From the NCBI GenBank assembly GCA_951406725.2, contig OX597827.1:36332001-36396000 (forward strand): DNA of 64,000 nucleotides. Reading direction: 5' to 3'. The DNA is from Octopus vulgaris. Taxonomy: Eukaryota. Position 1 is the first letter of the stretch. Each line of letters opens with the position of its first letter. Below, piece after piece: positions 11,623-62,605 of the stretch. Both the position numbers and the translations under genes were made by a program. The notes under the pieces were generated by a model. The model did no database searches and was not told the origin of the DNA. It worked only from the letters and a program-made list of their open reading frames with translations.

Positions 11623-11835
11623 GTCCAAATTTAGGGAATGGAGTTGATAAAATCCAGGCTACATGTTTCCTAGCTAGCAGAACTTTGGAATAATTACCCA
11701 AATGAAGGGTACTCCATTAGCCACTTGTAAGGCCTGATGAATACCCTCGTTTGGGTAATTACTACTTCCAAGATTCTGCTAGCTAAGAAATATATGTAGC
11801 CTGGATTTTATCCACTCCATTCCCTAAATTAGGAC
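11623..11835. mobile_element. Palindromic foldback MITE-like element
   Basis: Arm gtccaaatttagggaatggagttgataaaatccaggctacat...tacccaaa is complementary to tttgggta...atgtagcctggattttatccactccattccctaaattaggac. Confidence 0.75.
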
Positions 11836-11842
11836 ATATATA

Positions 11843-13130
11843 TAGTGGGTTGGCCAAAAAGTCCTTTTTTGTTTTTTAGTATCAACTGTCCGGTCTTCTA
11901 ATCACTGTTCCGATATTCTTTTTCTTTAGAAACTGTATTCAGTATAACGACCAAGGTTACATCAGTGTGAAACAAGCCTCAAAGGAGAGAGATTGCAACT
12001 TGTTTGATTGCATTTGAGCCTAGACATGGAAGACAGGGCGGAGCACTATCGGCATCTTATGCTTTTTTACTTCAGAAAAAGAAAGAAAGCAACAGAAACT
12101 TGCTGAAAGTTATGCAATGTGTATGCAGAGAATGCTGTTTCAGAATGGGTGTGCCAGAAATGGTTTGCTTGATTTCGATCAGGGAATTTTTCAGTAAGAG
12201 ATGCACCTCGCTCTGGCCAGCGAAAAGAAATTGACATCAACTAACTGAGAGCTGTAGTCAAACAAGACTGCAGTCTTATGACCAGACAAATCGCAGATAT
12301 TCTTAACATATCCAAAACAAGTGTGGAAAATGAATTGCATAAACTTGGTTATGTTTCTAAACTTGATGTTTGGGTTCCCCATAAATTGACAGAAGCAAAT
12401 CTTGTCCAGAGGGTTTCCATTTGCAATTCATTGCTGAAAAGGGAAAACAACAAACCCTTTTTGAGAAGAATTGTTACTGGAGATGAAAAGTGGGTAGTTT
12501 ATAATAATGTGAAACGAAGAAGATCATGGAAAAAAGCAGGGGATTCTCCAAAGCGAACACACAAAGCAGGTCTTCACCCAAAGATAGTTCTGCTATCAAT
12601 ATGGTGGAATTGGAAGAGTTATCTTTTTTTGAACTTCTTCCCTTGAATAAAACCATCAATTCAGAGGTCTATTGTGAACAATTGGATAAATTAAAGACAG
12701 CTCTTCATCAAAAACGGCCAGAACTGGTGAATCGTAAAGGCATTGTTTTCCACCATGACAACGCAAGGCCACACACTGCTTTGATTACTCGGCAGAAGTT
12801 GCTGCAGCTTGAGTGGGAAGTTTTGCCTCACCCACCATACTATCCAGATCTGGCCCCATCAGATTTCCATCTGTTTCGGTCACTGCAAAATTCATTGAAT
12901 GGAAAAAATTTTAATTCTGATGAAGACGTGAAAACTTTCTTGGAAATTTTTTTGCTAATAAAGAACCTAAATTCTTCGAATAGGAGATTAAAGATCTACC
13001 CAACAGGTGACGAAAGGTTATAGAAGCAAATGGTAACTATTGTATTGATTAAATACACTTTTCACAATTGTTTACTTTTCTTTTGATTTTCACCTAAAAA
13101 AAACAAACGGACTTTTTGGCCAACCCAATA
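11843..13130 (+). mobile_element. Full-length mariner (DD34D) transposon with frameshifted transposase
   Basis: 1288 bp; TIRs ta(g/t)tgggttggccaaaaagtcc; TA flanks; WVPHKL, TGDEKW, HDNARPH and YYPDLAPSDFHLF split across ORFs 12278-12646 and 12526-13023. Confidence 0.95.
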
Positions 13131-24501: not shown

Positions 24502-25781
24502 TATCAAAAAGTTCTCAGACAAGTTATGTTTAATAATAAATAAGTTATTTGCCTAAGTTTTAACATCATCTCCTTTGAAATAGTCACCTTATGCAGCAAT
24601 ACACTGGTCATAGCGTTCCTGCTACTTTTGGAATCTCGCATGAAAGTCATTTCCCATAAGCGAGTCAAGAACTTTCTTCGATTCACTCTGGATCTCAACA
24701 ATGGTGCTAAAACAGCAACTTTGAGCTGCATTTTCATTTTAGGGAAGAGATGGAAGTCTGCAGGTACTAAATCTGACAAATAGGGTAGGTTTGGAAGTGA
24801 TATCATGTTGCTTTTGGCAAGAAACTCACAAGTGAGGAGAGCTCAGGGACAGGGCGCATTGCTGTCATGAAGAATCCAATTCTTTGCACTCCACAGATCT
24901 GGTGACTTTTGCTAGATGTTCTCCCTCAAACACTTCAAAAGATTGCAGTATAACTCTTGATTGACGGTCTGGCCCTGGGAGATGAATTCTCAATGTACAA
25001 TACCACAGATGTCAAAAAAAAAAAAACATCGAGCGTGCTCTTGATTGAGGTGCATTTCTGTTATACCTTCTTTGGTCATAGAGATGAAGGTCTCTTCCAT
25101 TGTGACAACAGCTGCTTCATGTCTGGGTTGTACCTGTAGACTCAACTCATGTCACTAGTGATGATCCTCGACATGAAGGATGAGTCATCAGTAGCATGAT
25201 GACAGAGATCTTGACACACTTCAACATGATGTTCTTTCTGCTCAGTGGTCAGTAGGCAAGGGAAAAAACTTGGTAGACACACACCACATGTTCAATTCAG
25301 ACATTAGGATTGCTTGAATGGACCCATAGGACAGACCAATGACATCAGCAATGTTATTGATTGTCCTCTGATGAATTTCCTCCACATTTCTGGAGGTGAC
25401 AGTTGTGGCAGGTCTCCCAGATTGCTCATCATCTTCCAGAGATGTTCTTTCACTTTTGAAGTGCCTGTGCCACTGGAAACTTTGTGTATTACCCATTGCT
25501 TTGTTGCCATAAGCTTGTTGAAACATGCTCAATGTTTCTGTAGCAGACTTCCCAAGTTTAATGCAAAATTTTATGTTGGCTTTTTCTTCCAGCATCCTAT
25601 CCATGACAAAATCACAGAATACAGCATACACGTGATCACAAATATCACAATTTGTGAAGTAAACACAGCGATGTGACTCAGCACAGAGCCTCATGAAAGT
25701 CACCGCTAACTCTCACTGCCCTCAAAACTGTGCTACCATTTGTTGGTGCACTACAGAATTAGTTCAGGAATTTTCTGATAC
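24502..25781 (-). mobile_element. Decayed near-full-length mariner (same family as 13621-14491)
   Basis: HTH IKFCIKLGKSATET..AYG..QW...FK...SLEDD..SGRP; PY.SDL.PADFHLFPKMK; TIR remnants at both ends. Confidence 0.88.
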
Positions 25782-29579: not shown

Positions 29580-31005
29580 CACTCCCACTCCATTTGTTGT
29601 CAAGTTTTGTTCAAGTAGTGAGTTCTTGTTGGGTGAGTTGTATCCAGTTTTGTTCAAGTAGTGAGTTCTTGTTGGGTGAGTTGTATCCAATTATGGGTGG
29701 CTTATCTGGTATTCTTTGAAGGAATCTATCCAGACTCTGTTTAAAGTTGATGGGATCCTTTTCCTCTTTGATCTCTCTCGGGACAATGTTAAATAGGGCA
29801 GGGCCTGTTGAGGAAAAGAAATTATGTTGCAGTGTACATGTATGTTGTGATCTTGAATTGGGCAGGGGACGTATAGCCCGTGGTCCAAGTCTTGGATGAA
29901 CCTTGAAGCTAATGTTTAGGTCGTTTGGGCATAGTTGGCGGTATATTTTCCACATCATACAAATGATGTACCGCTCACGGCGACGCTGGAGGGAGTAAAG
30001 TTTCAAGGCTTTAAGGCGATCCCAATAATCGAGAGCAGCCATGCCTTCAATTCGTTCAGTGAGTGCCCTCTGGGGTGACTCAATTCTGGAGATGGTTTGT
30101 CTTGTGTGAGGAGACCACAGTGGGCAGCAGTATTCAAGGTGTGGCCGTACAAAGGAGGAAAAAAGTGGTATGATGACACCTTGTTCTCTGGACCGGAAAG
30201 TTCTTAAGATCCAGGAACTCATCCTACGAGCTATATCGACCTTCTTGTTGATGTGTGCACTCCAACTGAGATCGTCATCAACAATTACACCCAGGTCTCT
30301 GATATTGTTAGAGGCTGTGAGCGGTTCCCCTGAAGGAAGAGAGTATGGCTGTTTTAGTGAGGAGTTTCTTTCAAAATGCATCAGCTCAAATTTTCCCTCA
30401 TTCAGTTGCATTTTGTTTCTGTCTGCCCATTGACTCACAGCATATAGATCAGACTGGAGTTGATTTCAGTCTGCTTCTTCATTCACAATTTGCTGGAGCT
30501 TGGTGTCATCAGCAAATATTTTCACTTTGCAGTAATGTACGACACTGGAAAGGTCGTTTATGTAGATTATGAAGAGTAGCGGACCCAAGACAGTCCCCTG
30601 GGGGACACCGCTGGTGACTTTTGCTGGGCTTGAGTGGACTCCATCAACTACAACATGTTGTGTTCTATTCGCCAGGAAATACTTGATCCAATGTAGAACT
30701 TTTCCACGGATTCAAACATTTGCCAATTTTGAGAGTAGGATATTATGGTATACCCTGTCGAACGCTTTACTGAAGTCAAGATATATGACATCAGAGTTCG
30801 AACCTGTTCCCAAGGCTTTGAGTACATCTTCAATGTGGTGTAAGAGCTGTGTTAGACAGTCCCTGCCACAGCGAAAGCCATGCTGATTTGCATTTAGGAG
30901 TTTCTGGGTCTCCAGGAAGTCAGCCATCCTTGATCTTAACACTCTTTCAAACACTTTGATGATGTGGGAGGTGAGTGAGATTGGGCGATAGTTGAGTGCG
31001 AGGGG
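29580..31005 (-). mobile_element. 5'-truncated CR1-clade LINE ORF2 (RT plus C-terminus)
   Basis: NYRPISLTSHIIKVFER, QHGFR.GR.CLTQLL, YLDFSKAFDRV, GVPQGTVLGPLLF, FADD and RPHLEYCCPLWSP; few frameshifts, so relatively young. Confidence 0.93.
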
Positions 31006-31012
31006 ATCTGTG

Positions 31013-31063
<51 letters not shown>

Positions 31064-31191
31064 TATATATATATGTATATCGGCATGCCCGTGTAAATTT
31101 TGCGTCTGCGCAGAGATTTGAAAAGTTAAGATCTGCTAGTAGTCGGGTTTAACATATAGCCCCACATCGCTGCAGACCTCGATTAAATTCA

Positions 31192-31273
31192 GGCGACTCG
31201 CTGATGAAGCCAGCCTTAGCAAACATATTCTGTGTTTTGCTAGAAAGAAGCAGAAACCGCGGTACGAGTTGTT
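31192..31273 (+). ncRNA. Type I hammerhead ribozyme, copy 1 (predicted cleavage after GUA, 31264)
   Basis: Stem I ggcgactcg/cgagttgtt; CTGATGA 31201-31207; stem II with tagcaaacata/tgtgttttgcta hairpin; GAAA 31253-31256; palindromic stem III ACCGCGGT. Confidence 0.82.
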
Positions 31274-31636
31274 AAAGTTATCGGTAAACGTTTTTGATTT
31301 TCACTCTCGATAAATTCATCCCCTTTTTGTGTCCCCAGCACTCGGCATCTTTATTTAGGAGCCCTTAATTGTATAACCACATGAATAATATTTTTCTATA
31401 TGAATAATATTTTTGTCTTATGACTAATTCGTCTTTTGTGCTGGGCACCTGGTAGTAAATAATATTACTACCCTTCTTGCTTATATTCGCATACTACATG
31501 ATGAATTTATTCGTAAAATTCTTCCCGGCATGCCCGTGTAAATTTTGCGTCTGCGCAGAGATTTGAAAAGTTAAGATCTGCTAGTAGTCGGGTTTAACAT
31601 ATAGCCCCACATCGCTGCAGACCTCGATTAAATTCA

Positions 31637-31718
31637 GGCGACTCGCTGATGAAGCCAGCCTTAGCAAACATATTCTGTGTTTTGCTAGAAAGAAGCAGAA
31701 ACCGCGGTACGAGTTGTT
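31637..31718 (+). ncRNA. Type I hammerhead ribozyme, copy 2 (predicted cleavage after 31709)
   Basis: Identical to copy 1, offset by 445 nt. Confidence 0.82.
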
Positions 31719-31939
31719 AAAGTTATCGGTAAACGTTTTTGATTTTCACTCTCGATAAATTCATCCCCTTTTTGTGTCCCCAGCACTCGGCATCTTTATT
31801 TAGGAGCCCTTAATTGTATAACCACATGAATAATATTTTTCTATATGAATAATATTTTTGTCTTATGACTAATTCGTCTTTTGTGCTGGGCACCTGGTAG
31901 TAAATAATATTACTACTCTTCTTGCTTATATTCGCATAT

Positions 31940-31940
31940 T

Positions 31941-31989
<49 letters not shown>

Positions 31990-31995
31990 ATATAT

Positions 31996-32069
<74 letters not shown>

Positions 32070-32098
32070 ATATATATATATCATGTATATATATATAC

Positions 32099-32137
<39 letters not shown>

Positions 32138-32155
32138 CATGTATATATATATATG

Positions 32156-32214
<59 letters not shown>

Positions 32215-32310
32215 GTATATATAATATGTATATATATATATGTATGTATATATATATATGTATGTATGTATATATATATATATATATATATGTAAATATA
32301 TATATATGTA
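31940..32310. repeat. Long compound (TA)n/(TATG)n microsatellite
   Basis: Direct reading; source of the spurious YIYI ORFs. Confidence 0.95.
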
Positions 32311-33040
32311 TACGTTTATAGATACAAGCATCAATTTATATTTGAGGATATAATTGAGGCATAGATGAGTAAAATTAAGTATGTATGTATACATTTGTAT
32401 AAATGTATGCGTACAGCCATGTTATATATTTTGGTGCACAATTATATCTATACATATAAATTTGACATGAGTGATTTTTTTCTTGTCTTTGGATTCACGA
32501 TTAAATTGGCTGGGTGGAATTGTGTGAAGAATTAAACAGATGTGTAGAATGATCCAGTGTTGTTGCTGGATTTTGTATTTTTTTCATAGGTCCCATGGTT
32601 ACTGAGATAATCTACTATAATAATATTCTTGTATTTATGAATGAGAACGGAAGGGGTGATGTCATACTTGGTAGTGGGATGATGAAAATTGTACGCTGAA
32701 AAAATAAATCAAATAGCATTTCAACTCTGTGTGAATATATGTGTGTGTGTGTAAAGGGGTATGTGAATGTGTCTGCGTGTGCATATGTGTGTTTGTATGT
32801 GTATGCAGGTGTGCACGCAATGGAAGTGGGATGGTTCAGCTTTGTTTGCTTAGTATTTTTTTTTGTTGGTCATTTATTTTTAGTATTTTGACAGAAAAAA
32901 GTCATTCTAAAATTGTTTTTTAATGTAAGCATGCCCAAACAAGTTGAATGTTTACACAGAGCAGGTTTTATAGCTACATCATCCAAACTGACCAGATGAA
33001 ACTGGGCTTAGCTGCTAGTATACATATGTGTGTATGTATA

Positions 33041-34160
33041 TCATCATCATCATCATCACCGTTTAACGTCCGTTCTCCATGCTAGCATGGGTTGGACAGT
33101 TCGACCGGGGATCTGGGAAGCCAGAAGGCTGCACCAGGCTCCAGTCTAATCTGGCAATGTTTCTACAGCTGGATGCCCTTCCTAACGCCAACCACTCCGT
33201 GAGTGTAGTGGGTGCTTTTTACGTGCCACCTGCACAGGTGGCAGGCGAGGCTGGCAACGACCACGGTCGGATTGGTGTATTTTATGTGCCACCGGCACGG
33301 AAGCCAGTCGAGGCGGTGCTGGCATCGGCCACGAGTCGGATAGTGCTTTTTACGTACCACCAGACCAGGGATCCTGGCTGGTTCAATTCGATTTCGATTT
33401 CGCTTGCCCCAACATGTCTTCACAAGCAAAGGGGGTTGGCATGGGTGCCTGTTGTACGGTCGGATTGGAGTATTTTACGCGCCACCGGCACGGAAGCCAG
33501 TCGAAGCGGCGCTGGCATCGGCCACGAGTCGGATAGTGCTTTTTACGTACCACCAGACCAGGGATCCTGGCTGGTTTAATTCGGTTTCGATTTCGATTTC
33601 GCTTGCCCCAACATGTCTTCGCAAGCAGAGGGGGTTGGCATGGGTGCCTGTCGTCGGATGAGGTTCTATATCGACTTCGCTTGCCTCAACAGGTCTTTGT
33701 GTCCAAGGGAGGAAAGGCATTCATAAGTGGGCTGGGCTCACTTGTTCTGCCTGGTCTTTTCACGTACAGAATATTTCCAAAGGTCTCGGTCGCTGGTCAT
33801 TTCCTCAGTGAGGCCTAAAGTTTGAAGGTCGTGCTTCACCACCTCGTCCCAGGTTTTCCTGGGTCTACCTCTTCCACGGATTCCCTCAACTGCTAGGGAT
33901 TGGCACTTTCTCACACACCTATCTTCATCCATTCTCGCCACGTGACCATACCAGCGCAATCGTCTCTCTTGCACACCACAACTGATGCTTCTTAGGTACA
34001 ACATTTCTCTCAAGGTGCTAACACTCTGTCGAGTATGTACACTGACATTACACATCCATCGGAGCATACTGGCTTCATTCCTCACGAGCTTACGCATGTC
34101 CTCAGCAGTCACGGCCCATGTTTCACTGCCATGTAGCATGGCTGTTCGTACACACGCATC
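33041..34160 (-). mobile_element. RTE LINE 3' end (C-terminus plus expanded 3' UTR)
   Basis: ORF 33738-34139 MLHGSETWAVT..RLRWYGHVARMDEDR..RGRGRPRKTW; (GAT)n tail. Confidence 0.92.
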
Positions 34161-35206: not shown

Positions 35207-36135
35207 CATCATCATCATCGTTTAACGTTCGTTTTCCATGCTAGCATGGGTTGGACGGTTCAACTGGGGTCTGGGAAGCCAGAAGGCTGCGCCAGGCCCA
35301 GTCTGATCTGGCAGTGTTTCTACAGCTGGATGCCCTTCATAACGCCAACCACTCCATGAGTATAGTGGGTGCTTCCTACGTGCCAACCTGCACAGGTGCC
35401 AGACGAGGCTGGCAAACGGCCACGATTGGATGGTGCTTTTTATGTGCCACCAGCATGGGGGCCAGACGAGGCTGGCAACGGCCACAATCGGATGGTGCTT
35501 TTTACGTGCCAGTCGGGGCGGTGCTGGTAACAGCCACGTTTGGATGGTTCTCTTACGTGCCACCGGCACAGGTATCACATCTACAATTTCCATTGATGTT
35601 GATCGATTTCGATTTTCACTTGCCTCAACAGGTCTTCACAAGTAGGGTTTGTGTCACAAGAAGGAAAGGTATGCATAAGTGGACTGGCTACATCCCAGGT
35701 AGAGGCCATGGGTTATGGTCTCACTTGTCCTACCGGGTCTTCTCATGCACAGCATACTTCCATAGGTCTCGGTCTCTGGTCATTTCCTCGGTGAGACCTA
35801 AAGTTCGAAGGTCGTGCTTCACCACTTCGTCCCAGGTTTTCCTGGGTCTACCTCTTCCACAGGTTCCCTCAACCGCTAGGGTGTGGCACTTTTTCACACA
35901 CAACTATCTTCCTCCATTCTCGCTACATGACTATACCAGCGCAAACGTCTCTCTTGCACACCACAACTGATGCTTCTTAGGTCCAACTTTTCTCTCAAGG
36001 TATGAACACTGACATTACACATCCATAGGAGCATACTGGCTTCTTTTCTTGTGAGCTTACGCATATCCTCAGCAGTCATGGCCCATGTTTCACTGCCATG
36101 TAGCATGGCTGTTCGTACACATGTGTCATACACAT
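35207..36135 (-). mobile_element. RTE LINE 3' end
   Basis: ORF 35894-36133 VRTAMLHGSETW..RLRWY; family 3' UTR and tail. Confidence 0.9.
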
Positions 36136-41732: not shown

Positions 41733-42215
41733 ATCATCATCATTTAATGTCTATTTTCCATGTTGGCCGAGGTTGAATGGTTTGCCCAGAGTTGACAAGC
41801 TGGAGAGCTACTTTAGGTTCCAGTCTGATTTGACTTGGTTTCTATGGCTGCATGCACTGCCCAACACCAACGACTTTACAGAGTGTGCTAGGTGCTTCTT
41901 ATGTGGCCTGGTATGGGTGCTTTTTATGTGGGTCGGCAGGTGCTTTTCATGTGGGCCAGTATTATGGGTGCTTTTTACTTGGACTAGCACAAGGGCACTT
42001 TCAAGGCAAGTCCCCACCCTCCTTTGAGGGTAGGAGTTTAACAACTCTGCTATGGTTGATGGGTCTTCTTACTAAAACAAGGTACCACGTATCTTGGTCC
42101 TTTGTCATCCTCTTTGTAAGGCTCAGTGTCCTGAGATCAGCCTTCAGTACATCTTGTGACTTTTTGGGTCTTCGTCTTCCACTGTGATTGGCAATTGGCA
42201 CTTTATGCAGCTGTC
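41733..42215 (-). mobile_element. Decayed RTE LINE 3' end
   Basis: GRRRPKKS.DVLKADLRTL.LT remnant; family 3' UTR. Confidence 0.7.
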
Positions 42216-56090: not shown

Positions 56091-57394
56091 TGCTACTTAT
56101 CATTATTATGCTTTCATTCTTTGTTTACAGTCATGTTCTTTGGTACATTTATTTAATCTATAATAATAAATGCCAAAATATATCTCTGTGTGTCAGTGTG
56201 TCACACTTTGACCCCTTCTCACACTATTCAATAACACTTGTACTTTTTCTCTTGATGGGGTAAGAGTAATAGTAGGCATAGAGACGGTGATGGTGGTAGT
56301 AGATTGATGGTTGTGATGATAATGGGGTGATAGTAATAGTGTGAGTTGTAGTTGTGATAGAGGCGGAGGCGGTGGTGAATATGGTATGGGTGGTGGTAGC
56401 GAAGGCAGACATGGATTACAGTGATAGTAAGTGATGTGAAAGACAGTGGTGATGGTGGTGGAGGGAAAGGCAGCGACGCCAAAGGTATTGATGGAGGTGG
56501 CATTAGAAGTCTGAATGGTGCATGTATGGCAGTTGTGGCAATGGTGGTGGTACTGGTGATGGTGATGATGGTTGAATACAATCAACAGAAAGGGAGAGAG
56601 AGAGAGAGGTTAGACAGAAAAAAAAATTGTACTGTCCCCTGAATGGGAAGACAAAAAAAATGTTTATCATGCAGCTTTGCAATAAGTTCCAAATCGACAA
56701 ATTATATCATTGTTTTGATGAAAATTGTTCATTGCTTGAAAAATATTGGTCAAGTTTAATAAAATTTAATATGTACTCAATGCATGAAATGTCACTGTTG
56801 GGCCCAAGGCCCAATGTAGAGCCTTCCACAGGAGCTAGCTTAAAAATCACCTCATCGGGCAGCTTTTAGGCTAGATTCTTATATATCTAGTTGACCCTTC
56901 CTTCTTCTCTTGCCATATTGTTCTATCTCCATCACCATTCCTTTATCTTCATACCTACGGTACTGATCCCTTTTCCTCCTTTTTTTCTCTCTTTTCCTTT
57001 CCAATCTTCTCTCTCTTTTCTACTTCCCACTCTTTAGCTATTTTACCCCTTCTGACCATGTTCTTCTCTCATCAAGTAGGCAACATGAACTGCTCCAACC
57101 ATATATACTATGTCTTAACTGAAGTAGATTTTATGTAAGAGAAGAAATTCCTTTTTATCTCTTGCACGATTATCTGAAACATAGATATTAAATGCATGCA
57201 AAATATTACTTGATATGACTTTATTATTATAACTTTGTAATTATGACTCATGCCAGTATAAGCCGTCCAGTTCTAACTCCATCCACATGGATACTATAAG
57301 GATTTGGGGTGGCTTGTTCGATTTGACTTGCATCAGAAAATCTGGTAGCATGCATCACTTCTAAGTCTAACATGAATTATATATAAATCATCCT

Positions 57395-57626
57395 TGCTAG
57401 TGCCATGTAAAAAGTTCCTGTACCTGTGCCATGTAAAAAAGCACCATTGCTGGTGCCACATAATAAAGTAGCACCCAGCAAGTCTGTAAAGTGGTTGGCA
57501 TTAGGAAGGACATCCAGCTACAGAAACCAAGCCAAATCTAACCAGAAACTGTTCTAGCTTGCCAGTTCTGGTCAAACCATCCAACACATGCCAGCATGGA
57601 AAATATATGTTAAATGATGATGATGG
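57395..57626 (+). mobile_element. RTE LINE 3' UTR fragment, tail-to-tail with the next copy
   Basis: gtggttggcattaggaaggacatccagct...catgccagcatggaaaa..gttaaatgatgatgatg. Confidence 0.75.
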
Positions 57627-60580: not shown

Positions 60581-62266
60581 GTAATAATTAAATATTATGT
60601 GTGTATTCATGGATATGGATGTATATGTATGTTCCATATATGTATATATATATGTATATAATTAATTGTCTATATGCTTGTGCGTATGTTTAATTGTGCC
60701 TATTTATGTACATGTATAGGCAGTGGCCGGGCAACAAAATTTGCTGTTGGACTTATAAAACTTTAATTCAACCCCTTTAATTCTTGATATCATTTCTATC
60801 CTGTGTAAGCTGGACATTTTTTATATGTAAACATATGTACACTTTTTGTATTAAATGCATTTAATATTTTTTGTATATCAACTTGCCTAACCTCACATTT
60901 ACTCCTCCACCTCTTGAGTACTATGAAGTGTATTCTGTACAGAGAATATCTGTTTCTCATCTATAAACCATGTGTGTGTGTGTGTGTGTGTGTGTTGATA
61001 TGTGTGTATGTGTATAGCTGTGTGTTATATTTATAAGCATGTGTATATTCTTGCATAGATGTGTTTCTGTGTATGTTTGTGTGTGTATTTTGTATATTCA
61101 AGATTAATACACTGTATGGAAAGTATATGGAGATATGGTTGGTGTGAAAGTGTGATTGTTGAAAGTTCAGACTTCTTTTGTGGATATTAGATGATTTTGA
61201 ATAAAAGTTTATAACTAAAGAACACAGTTTGTTGGTGTTAGGTTGACTTTCTGCCTAGAAGCACTTGTCCGTGACTTCTTTAAAATCTTTACACCAACTG
61301 TCTTGTCCCTAAACCAGCTGACCACCCGTGTAATTACTTTGGTAGTTATTTTAGATCATTTGGTTATATTTTTAAGTTACTTTATCTCTGTTATTTAGCT
61401 TAAATTTTTTTATTTGGCATTTAAACTTAACTGATCTAAGGGCATTCATATGTGAAGAAATTTTTTTCTATACTAGATAGCAACACAGCTTGTCTTTGCT
61501 CTGTTGTTGAGCTTTTATTGGTCAAATCACTGTAATTTTATTCACTTTTGGCCTTCTATACATTGTAAGTATAGAGTGAATTTTATGTGATCTGATGAGC
61601 TTTCTTTATTTGCACTTATTTGTAAATATGCAATTGTATAAAACTGAGCATACATACATACTAGTATGTATTATACTAATGTATACTTTGTATAATTTCT
61701 TATACACTGATTTACTCATATAAATATAAATACATACACACATACACACAATGGTACAGCCCTGGCTAAGCTAAATCATAAAATATATCTGAAGTTCCAG
61801 ATTAGGCAGATAAGTTCATGTGAAAGACAATAGCCATCTTTGGCACAATTACCTTTAATTAATTTGATGGGGGTGAGTGTAAGATAGTGATAAATTTGGG
61901 TTGTACAAAGTTGATCTGAGTGGTAACAATGGTTGAAGGAAGGGTATGTGTGTGTGTGTGTAAGGAAAATTAGAAGGTCATCCGGGAAGGAGCTGTCATA
62001 ATCATGTTCTCTACATAATCTTAGGTTTGGACTGGGGCGATGGAAAAGAAAATTGTGAAGGAGTAGAAGGTGGGAGGAGGGGGCATTAAGATGTTTACTT
62101 TTTTTTCCTATTTTGTACTTGATTTTACATTTTCGTGTGTGTGTGTATATACACATATACATATGTATGCATGCATATATACAAACATAGAAAAGGAGAA
62201 AGGTGGTCATGCTCAAAAGCATGTGAATAGTTATAACATTTATACATACACACATCCTTGAGACTC

Positions 62267-62298
<32 letters not shown>

Positions 62299-62422
62299 GT
62301 TGGTATATAATGTGATGAGCAGATATTCATAGTAACATCACTAGTTAATGCCCCCACCTGCCCTCTTTTCCCCACTTCCTTCTCCACCACTAATTTATCA
62401 CTAATTTGCTCTTGTCTTGCAG

Positions 62423-62605
62423 TATAATGAAGTGTACAACTTCCCAATGAAGGCATTTACCAAGGTGTTAGATGGAGAAGAGGTAGAAGAGGAGGAGGAG
62501 GAGGATGAAGAAGAAGAAGAAGAGATAGACAGTGAAGAGGAAGGAAACCGAGGGCAGATTGCAGAGGAGGTGGAAGAAGAGATGGAGAAAGTGAAAGGCG
62601 AGAAG
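62423..62605 (+). CDS. MAK16: MAK16 coding exon 8 (YNEVYNFPMKAFTKVLD plus acidic tract); gene continues beyond the window
   Basis: ttgcag|TAT...AAG|gtaaaa; conserved YxxxYNFP..AF...L followed by a Glu/Asp-rich tail; donor less certain. Confidence 0.92.

Follow-up and report, generated by a model that had tools for sequence, protein, structure and literature searches.

How does a short repeat that encodes no protein come to stand twice, head to tail and almost unchanged, inside a (TA)n tract of the Octopus vulgaris genome? The question is raised by a locus in a stretch of 64,000 nucleotides (contig OX597827.1 of assembly GCA_951406725.2, positions 36,332,001 to 36,396,000, forward strand), here called the window. 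A preliminary description of this locus had proposed a recent, non-autonomous tandem retroelement that carries hammerheads and belongs to the non-LTR retrozymes. Animal non-LTR retrozymes, with units of about 150–450 bp, have been described in coral, mussel and axolotl (PMC7229834) and in vertebrates (10.64898/2026.07.22.740005), and are reviewed in PMC7761336. In the portions of the retrozyme literature available to us, an involvement of Penelope-like elements (PLEs) is proposed from co-occurrence and shared ends, and a circular RNA is proposed, but not shown, as the template. The searched literature, outside of which most subscription papers fall, contained no paper on a cephalopod retrozyme, although supplements could list one. 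The class of element is already known; what we present here is genomic evidence for the proposed Penelope link.

The repeat unit and its surroundings

The non-coding 445-bp unit is present at the locus in 1.93 copies within (TA)n (repeat period analysis: 445, 1.9 copies). Unit 1 (31081–31525, + strand) is complete and covers q1–445, where q is the position in the unit and q1 is 31081; its 5′ end is a truncation point, 5′ ends being scattered in the family. Unit 2 (31526–31938, + strand; q1–413) stops at the family's distal 3′ end site. The flanking (TA)n tracts, on the left at 31013–31080 and on the right at 31943–32312, represent the target site. Over the 413 bp covered by both copies (31081–31493 and 31526–31938) the sole difference is C at 31472 against T at 31917, and the preliminary description was right in this near identity within (TA)n as well as in the lack of a protein, since the longest open reading frame in the circular unit has 56 codons from stop to stop and 25 from ATG. 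The CpGs it had called intact have an observed/expected ratio of 1.16 in the unit versus 0.40 in the window, and the interval it had given between the predicted cuts, 31265–31709 (+ strand), indeed measures 445 nt. This predicted excised monomer, the putative circular RNA, has a folding z of −2.79.

Other repeats surround the locus. The left flank (30400–31000, − strand) resembles by eye a decayed reverse transcriptase (RT), LINE-type to judge by its motifs; the adjacent frame 29614–30465 has no Pfam match. Mariner-type transposase fragments (PF01359, PF17906) and a PigN match below the cut-off are found at window positions 12508–13020, 25245–25712 and 61779–62456, and a short-period tandem repeat family with a GGTGCTTTTTA-like word recurs at 33263–33651, 35368–35511, 41891–41977 and 57394–57458.

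A complete type I hammerhead motif in each copy

All parts of the type I hammerhead that had been claimed for each copy could be located. Motif 1 (31192–31273, + strand), identified from the sequence, from a pattern scan with shuffled controls and from covariation with a sister family, has a 9-bp stem I (31192–31200 paired with 31265–31273), a core of CUGAUGA (31201–31207) and GAAA (31253–31256) separated by a 45-nt stem II region, the palindrome ACCGCGGU (31256–31263) and a GUA triplet with predicted cleavage after 31264, that is, after q184. Motif 2 (31637–31718, + strand) is identical at a distance of +445, with predicted cleavage after 31709. Dinucleotide shuffles of the unit reproduced the pattern in 28 of 20,000 cases with a stem I of at least 4 bp, and in 0 of 20,000 with at least 9 bp. 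The search with hammerhead models that the preliminary description had suggested was negative, Rfam returning no hammerhead match at E ≤ 10 at the locus; its microRNA matches were below the cut-off and were rejected as TA-tract noise.

The motif does not belong to the minimal type. Minimal hammerheads of PLEs are described as having no helix III, a short helix I and a highly conserved G10.1–C11.1 pair (PMC4209133), whereas the motif at the locus has a 2-bp helix III, a long helix I of 9 bp and an A·A at 10.1–11.1. This A·A (31208/31252), located at the base of the long stem II hairpin and already pointed out as atypical, is real and is fixed in the family to which the locus belongs, family A (196 of 197 and 217 of 217 copies). 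A U·U mismatch at the stem II base did not prevent the cleavage of an axolotl retrozyme, which was cleaved better as a dimer (PMC7229834). In the monomer fold the probability of stem III is 0.06–0.10 and the palindrome duplex reaches −14.1 kcal/mol, a combination that fits the cleavage as dimers described for motifs with a weak stem III (PMC4209133). For Xenopus, one of nine retrozyme dimers is reported to have been cleaved in vitro (10.64898/2026.07.22.740005).

Several observations count against hammerhead function. The active monomer fold lies 3.8–3.9 kcal/mol above the minimum fold, in which the core is paired. The cleavage triplet is GUU, a weak hammerhead cleavage site, in 81 of 218 copies, a subfamily with a 454-bp unit being among the carriers. 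Purifying selection on the core within family A was not significant in two tests (P = 0.11 and P = 0.55), the former comparing inherited variants (0 of 66) with singletons (7 of 183) at 29 constrained positions. Together with the A·A, the GUU subfamily, the non-significant selection and the inactive minimum fold weaken the case for a working ribozyme.

Hammerhead patterns are not confined to the typical unit. Loci L054 and L062 have a 2-base insertion in common at q178–179, which adds one pair to stem III and leaves the segment self-complementary with G·U pairs. At 11730–11800 (+ strand) the window contains a second, unrelated single pattern with a long stem II region, an A·A base and a near-palindromic stem III, which probably belongs to another family. 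Further patterns with a long stem II and a palindromic or long stem III were seen in unrelated flanks of L050, L055, L111, L122, L131, L155, L160, L164 and L169, and the genome seems to hold many hammerhead-bearing families.

A dispersed family and a diverged sister family

A search of the same genome (2.8 Gb, 227 contigs) gave at least 152 matches, with 40 of 979 first-look candidates scored. The exact 22-base core motif occurs in 210 copies genome-wide, against 0 for the reversed-pattern control; 194 of the 210 copies were positioned, and 114 loci, including the present one, were fetched. All 114 are built from the same unit, without LTR architecture. Intact motifs follow each other on one strand two or more times in 29 loci, while 73 loci have one and 12 have none, and the longest array among the 194 positioned motif copies has 10 units (L036). 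At least two consecutive complete hammerheads, the criterion for an active retrozyme copy in 10.64898/2026.07.22.740005, are carried by the present locus and 28 others of the 114. Family A contains subfamilies.

The preliminary description had asked for such a genome-wide search, and in particular whether the core is conserved in other copies and whether the tandem could be an assembly duplication. The core is conserved across the genomic copies, and the dispersal of the 210 exact motifs over at least 114 loci, with tandem arrays in 29, is genomic evidence against such a duplication and bears out the type of element that had been proposed. That a single repeat copy was duplicated locally, or in the assembly, would suit two copies that differ at one base; however, period and fixed ends recur unchanged in the 29 loci with two or more tandem hammerheads, and L031, located on a different contig, covers the same stretch of two units, which leaves this explanation barely credible.

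Sister family B (L071–L082 and L111–L122, for example L122:3756–4555, − strand) has a 430-bp unit, 67–70% identical to that of family A along its length, and forms the same arrays, inversions and TA ends. Its hammerhead has G–C at 10.1–11.1 and the palindrome ACUGCAGU. The hammerhead core is invariant between the two families, which are ~68% identical. In this comparison, which spans two lineages only and in which both-sided changes are not independent events, both sides change in 4 of 16 named hammerhead pairs (two in stem I, one in stem II, one in the palindrome) and in 9 of 75 predicted pairs outside the ribozyme, including the cccagcac/gtgctggg helix that had been put forward as extra pairing of the monomer. 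For the hammerhead pairs, slid controls score below the true pairing. A conserved structured domain at 31309–31511 (+ strand) shows two both-sided changes per helix; its outer helix pairs 31309–31320 with 31500–31511 and its inner helix 31334–31341 with 31438–31445, and both 3′ end zones discussed below lie inside it. Judged from this comparison, the predicted hammerhead and body helices are retained between A and B through compensatory changes.

Two neighboring repeats of other kinds were seen. An array of 12 or more ~535-bp units (L068:410–3619; L170:7635–9775, − strand), all carrying a hammerhead and a palindromic stem III, lies ~1 kb from a family A copy. At L038:4707–5955, a family A copy is directly fused, at its 5′ end, to a repeat of another kind (~375 bp, tandem and inverted), possibly by a template switch between two non-autonomous elements.

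The insertion footprint

The strongest feature of the family, absent from the preliminary description, is a Penelope-type insertion footprint. The 173 family 3′ ends fall into a distal zone (91 ends, mostly q406 and q413) and a proximal zone (74 ends, mostly q295), with 8 ends elsewhere, and TA-rich DNA follows directly in 153 of 173. The proximal site, TTGTATA at q295, is located at 31369–31375 and again at 31814–31820 (+ strand); the distal sites lie at 31481–31493 (+ strand), and their second copy, 31926–31938, is the 3′ end of the present insertion itself. Both are putative priming sites in zones predicted to be largely unpaired. As the unit contains 16 TA-like six-mers and its ends concentrate in two zones, the choice of site is narrow.

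Arms stand back to back in 59 of the 114 loci, and typically each arm ends in a different zone. Of the first 74 loci, 26 were classifiable, and 24 of these had one zone per arm. Another 40 loci, fetched once the pattern had been put to a first test, added 17 of 17, next to 6 of a distal-plus-other type. Pooled, 51 of 54 classifiable two-armed loci show this arrangement (P = 1.4e-12), using zones that were widened after seeing the data (q265–345 and q395–431, originally q290–345 and q400–420) and blast ends that at 296–345 are mostly overruns into TA. Matches below 85% identity (80% for the end counts) and segments of up to 60 bases were excluded from the variant counts, as were a unit of L040 rich in single-base deletions and a fragment standing apart near L041. 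Target-site duplications, which in animal non-LTR retrozymes are described as longer than 4 bp when present, are unreadable inside TA tracts.

Penelope-like elements in the same genome

Two intact-looking PLE-like families with many near-identical copies are present in the genome, with ORFs of 1,311–1,312 codons and of 781 codons; we assume them, from motifs rather than from a tree, to be Hydra-like and Neptune-like. The insertions of the 1,311-codon family stop, next to TA, in either of two zones that lie ~56 bp apart; in all 11 of the two-armed loci where both ends are visible, each arm has a zone of its own, as counted by eye after merging overlapping fetches. The 781-codon family encodes RT and GIY-YIG domains by Pfam, and the alignments from which its end pairing would be read overrun into TA.

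The ends of the octopus element, with one zone per arm, match what is described for PLEs, namely a "tail" restricted to one of the ends (PMC8557442, Fig. 2 legend) and two internal start sites used by a purified PLE (PMC11167929). The length of this tail differs, with 111–118 bp in the octopus element, 30–40 bp in the published PLEs and ~56 bp in the 1,311-codon family, and the start site of the purified PLE is described as non-homologous to the cut DNA (PMC11167929), whereas the octopus sites are TA-like.

Both PLE families also have hammerhead-like motifs. In the 1,311-codon family (L103–L110; L037:155–3123), which has a tandem period of ~4.6 kb and 150 scored copies that are 96–100% identical, the motif lies upstream of the ORF with C replacing A9. 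In the 781-codon family (L153–L162, for example L155:3206–5548) it is found by eye in the 3′ region, with U3/A8 replacing C3/G8, and a frame of as many as 479 codons lies upstream in the full-length copies.

Is an ORF of this kind linked to the retrozyme unit? Within flanks of ~2–6 kb, 0 of 114 loci have an ORF in the pseudo-LTR position, so the absence of an adjacent RT or GIY-YIG ORF, first reported for the present locus, extends to the family, as does that of the constant Penelope linkage by which the element was to be reclassified. As far as sampled, the element is non-autonomous. Among 29 long frames near the first 40 loci, Pfam detected no domain at the 5′ edge of a unit; the same frames held LINE-type RT pieces and one GIY-YIG piece. 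With two PLE protein queries, PLE-like fragments were found near 19 of the 114 loci (13 of 74 and 6 of 40), and those inspected are set apart by TA tracts or unrelated DNA, except at L228. PLE ORFs near L037, L205, L238 and L243 were considered and rejected as linked partners; TA tracts separate them, and we read them as independent insertions into the same target. At L228 (4732–6144) a decayed PLE-like ORF abuts an inverted 39-bp retrozyme arm, an arrangement that could be an insertion into an old PLE copy or a chimera and that we read as an insertion. A low-stringency comparison of the untranslated regions (UTRs) of nine PLE copies from several families with units A and B gave AT-rich matches only, the best of which (E = 1e-4) is antisense and of low complexity, and thereby yielded no partner.

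These data also bear on whether the units are pseudo-LTRs, left as truncated ends by an autonomous PLE that has its ORF-bearing copy outside the sample. The 24 of 57 Xenopus retrozyme families reported to match known elements, nearly all of them PLEs (10.64898/2026.07.22.740005), speak for this, as do the PLE-like fragments in the flanks of 19 loci, one of them abutting, and the 16 of 210 motif copies that are unpositioned. At every locus, however, a unit is preceded by a further unit, by an inverted arm or by unrelated flanking DNA. The 445-bp unit leads back into itself and nowhere out into an ORF, the decayed ORF at L228 is cut off by the 39-bp arm, and the UTRs of the sampled PLE families show no similarity. 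We regard this explanation as most improbable.

The template of the insertions

Units diverge by 0.0064 within a locus and by 0.029 between loci, and in 23 loci the divergence between arms is 0.005, compared to 0.028 to other loci. Among locus-private variants, 18 are fixed in every covering unit and 7 are partial, next to 183 singletons. One haplotype per locus, shared by both arms, argues for one template per insertion. Near the cleavage site there are 6 of 173 5′ ends (6.2 expected), and none of the 218 passages through this site contains an indel (background 130 in 10,637 six-base windows). Given these clean passages and the lack of a 5′-end pile-up, the template is unlikely to have been a bare cut monomer.

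A cut linear monomer could still yield tandem copies without a covalent circle if the reverse transcriptase, on reaching the 5′ end of this template, jumped back to the 3′ end again and again. Retroelement enzymes are known to jump templates, and this route likewise implies a one-unit bottleneck and requires cleavage. Such jumps should nonetheless have left traces at the junction, where the indels do not exceed the background and the 5′ ends do not accumulate, and we therefore find it very unlikely.

Alternatively, the same element and PLE enzymes may have used an uncleaved linear multimer transcribed from a tandem array, the hammerhead being derived from a PLE end and weak or dispensable. An anole PLE used uncleaved RNA as its main substrate in vitro and did not need its own hammerhead, mutants of which were still inserted (PMC11167929), and the A·A, the GUU subfamily and the non-significant selection on the core point in the same direction. 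Clean passage of the cut site is equally expected, and variants that are partly shared inside L034 and L036 favor a multimer. Under 5′ truncation, however, arrays could only shrink, yet the longest ones (L034, L036, L041, L056 and L065) carry differing fixed haplotypes; no array exceeds 10 units among the positioned motif copies (194 of 210), and homogeneous source arrays are unseen. New variants fixed across all units and both arms need a bottleneck of one unit, and the core is invariant between families as diverged as A and B. On balance, we consider the linear multimer unlikely.

A circle explains the shared haplotypes, the clean passages, the differing arrays and the lack of a longer source array all at once. 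The 7 private partial variants and 32 shared variants that are never fixed, chiefly in L034 and L036, are a misfit with a pure circle and need later conversion or recurrent mutation.

Discussion

By every sequence criterion tested, the octopus element is an animal non-LTR retrozyme. It resembles the described ones in its non-coding tandem unit (445 bp), in the type I hammerhead with a weak palindromic stem III in each unit, in a GC content below 50%, in its dispersed dimers and multimers and in the predicted self-pairing of the monomer. It differs in the long stem II hairpin with an A·A base, in its copy number of hundreds instead of thousands, and in its footprint, as a TA target and two fixed end zones, one per arm, are not among the features described in the accessible parts of those studies.

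Similar to endonuclease-bearing PLEs (PMC4209133, PMC8557442, PMC11167929), the element has TA-microsatellite targets, partial tandems, an inverted 5′-truncated arm, a tail at one end only and a type I hammerhead with a palindromic stem III; unlike them, it has no RT/GIY-YIG ORF and no sequence similarity to the sampled PLE ends. Non-autonomous PLEs of Chlamys such as MRC1 (PMC8557442) are likewise multicopy, head-to-tail and inserted by PLEs, but, as far as described, their 3′ sequence is generally found in autonomous families too and most of them are without a hammerhead, whereas for the octopus element no shared end was found. With plant LTR retrozymes (PMC7229834) the element shares two hammerheads that bound a monomer expected to circularize. 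Those retrozymes, however, are described with type III hammerheads in LTRs, a primer-binding site, a polypurine tract, 4-bp target duplications and a unique middle, whereas here the topology is type I and the whole unit is repeated.

What, then, moved this repeat into the TA tract? That it is a non-autonomous element mobilized by PLEs is, in our view, very probable. It is also likely, with somewhat less assurance, that it is a young, protein-free hammerhead tandem repeat, present at more than 100 sites, which PLEs inserted into TA from an RNA template of one unit, probably a circle. Cleavage of the transcript and the 445-nt circle are steps that we infer, and the sequence of events may have been as follows. 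A locus with at least two tandem hammerheads, such as the present one (29 of 114), would be transcribed, and the 8-nt palindromes of the transcript would pair into a double hammerhead that cuts after 31264 and 31709. A host ligase may close the 445-nt monomer, by analogy with the coral, mussel and axolotl retrozymes. A PLE protein, the presumed maker of the observed footprint, would cut (TA)n, and the free DNA ends could prime at TA-like sites that lie exposed, one end at q295 and the other at q406/413. Reverse transcription would then run around the template for part of a turn up to about ten turns. Joining of two cDNAs would produce back-to-back arms, whereas a single productive primer would leave a one-armed copy like that at the present locus. 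The most specific form of this scheme, in which the insertions record a Penelope RT dimer that primes twice on one circular RNA, at two fixed sites, and copies it by rolling circle, we put forward tentatively and with slightly more doubt than belief.

These results bear on how animal retrozymes move. The family is young, its footprint is as in an intact PLE of the same genome and its putative priming sites are named, so that the role of PLEs and the circular template can be put to the test using a defined RNA and a pair of candidate enzymes. If double priming proves true, an animal circular RNA would be a true transposition intermediate, the PLE "tail" would be the gap separating two priming sites on one template, and the octopus genome would hold both the template families and the intact candidate enzymes with which to rebuild the reaction.
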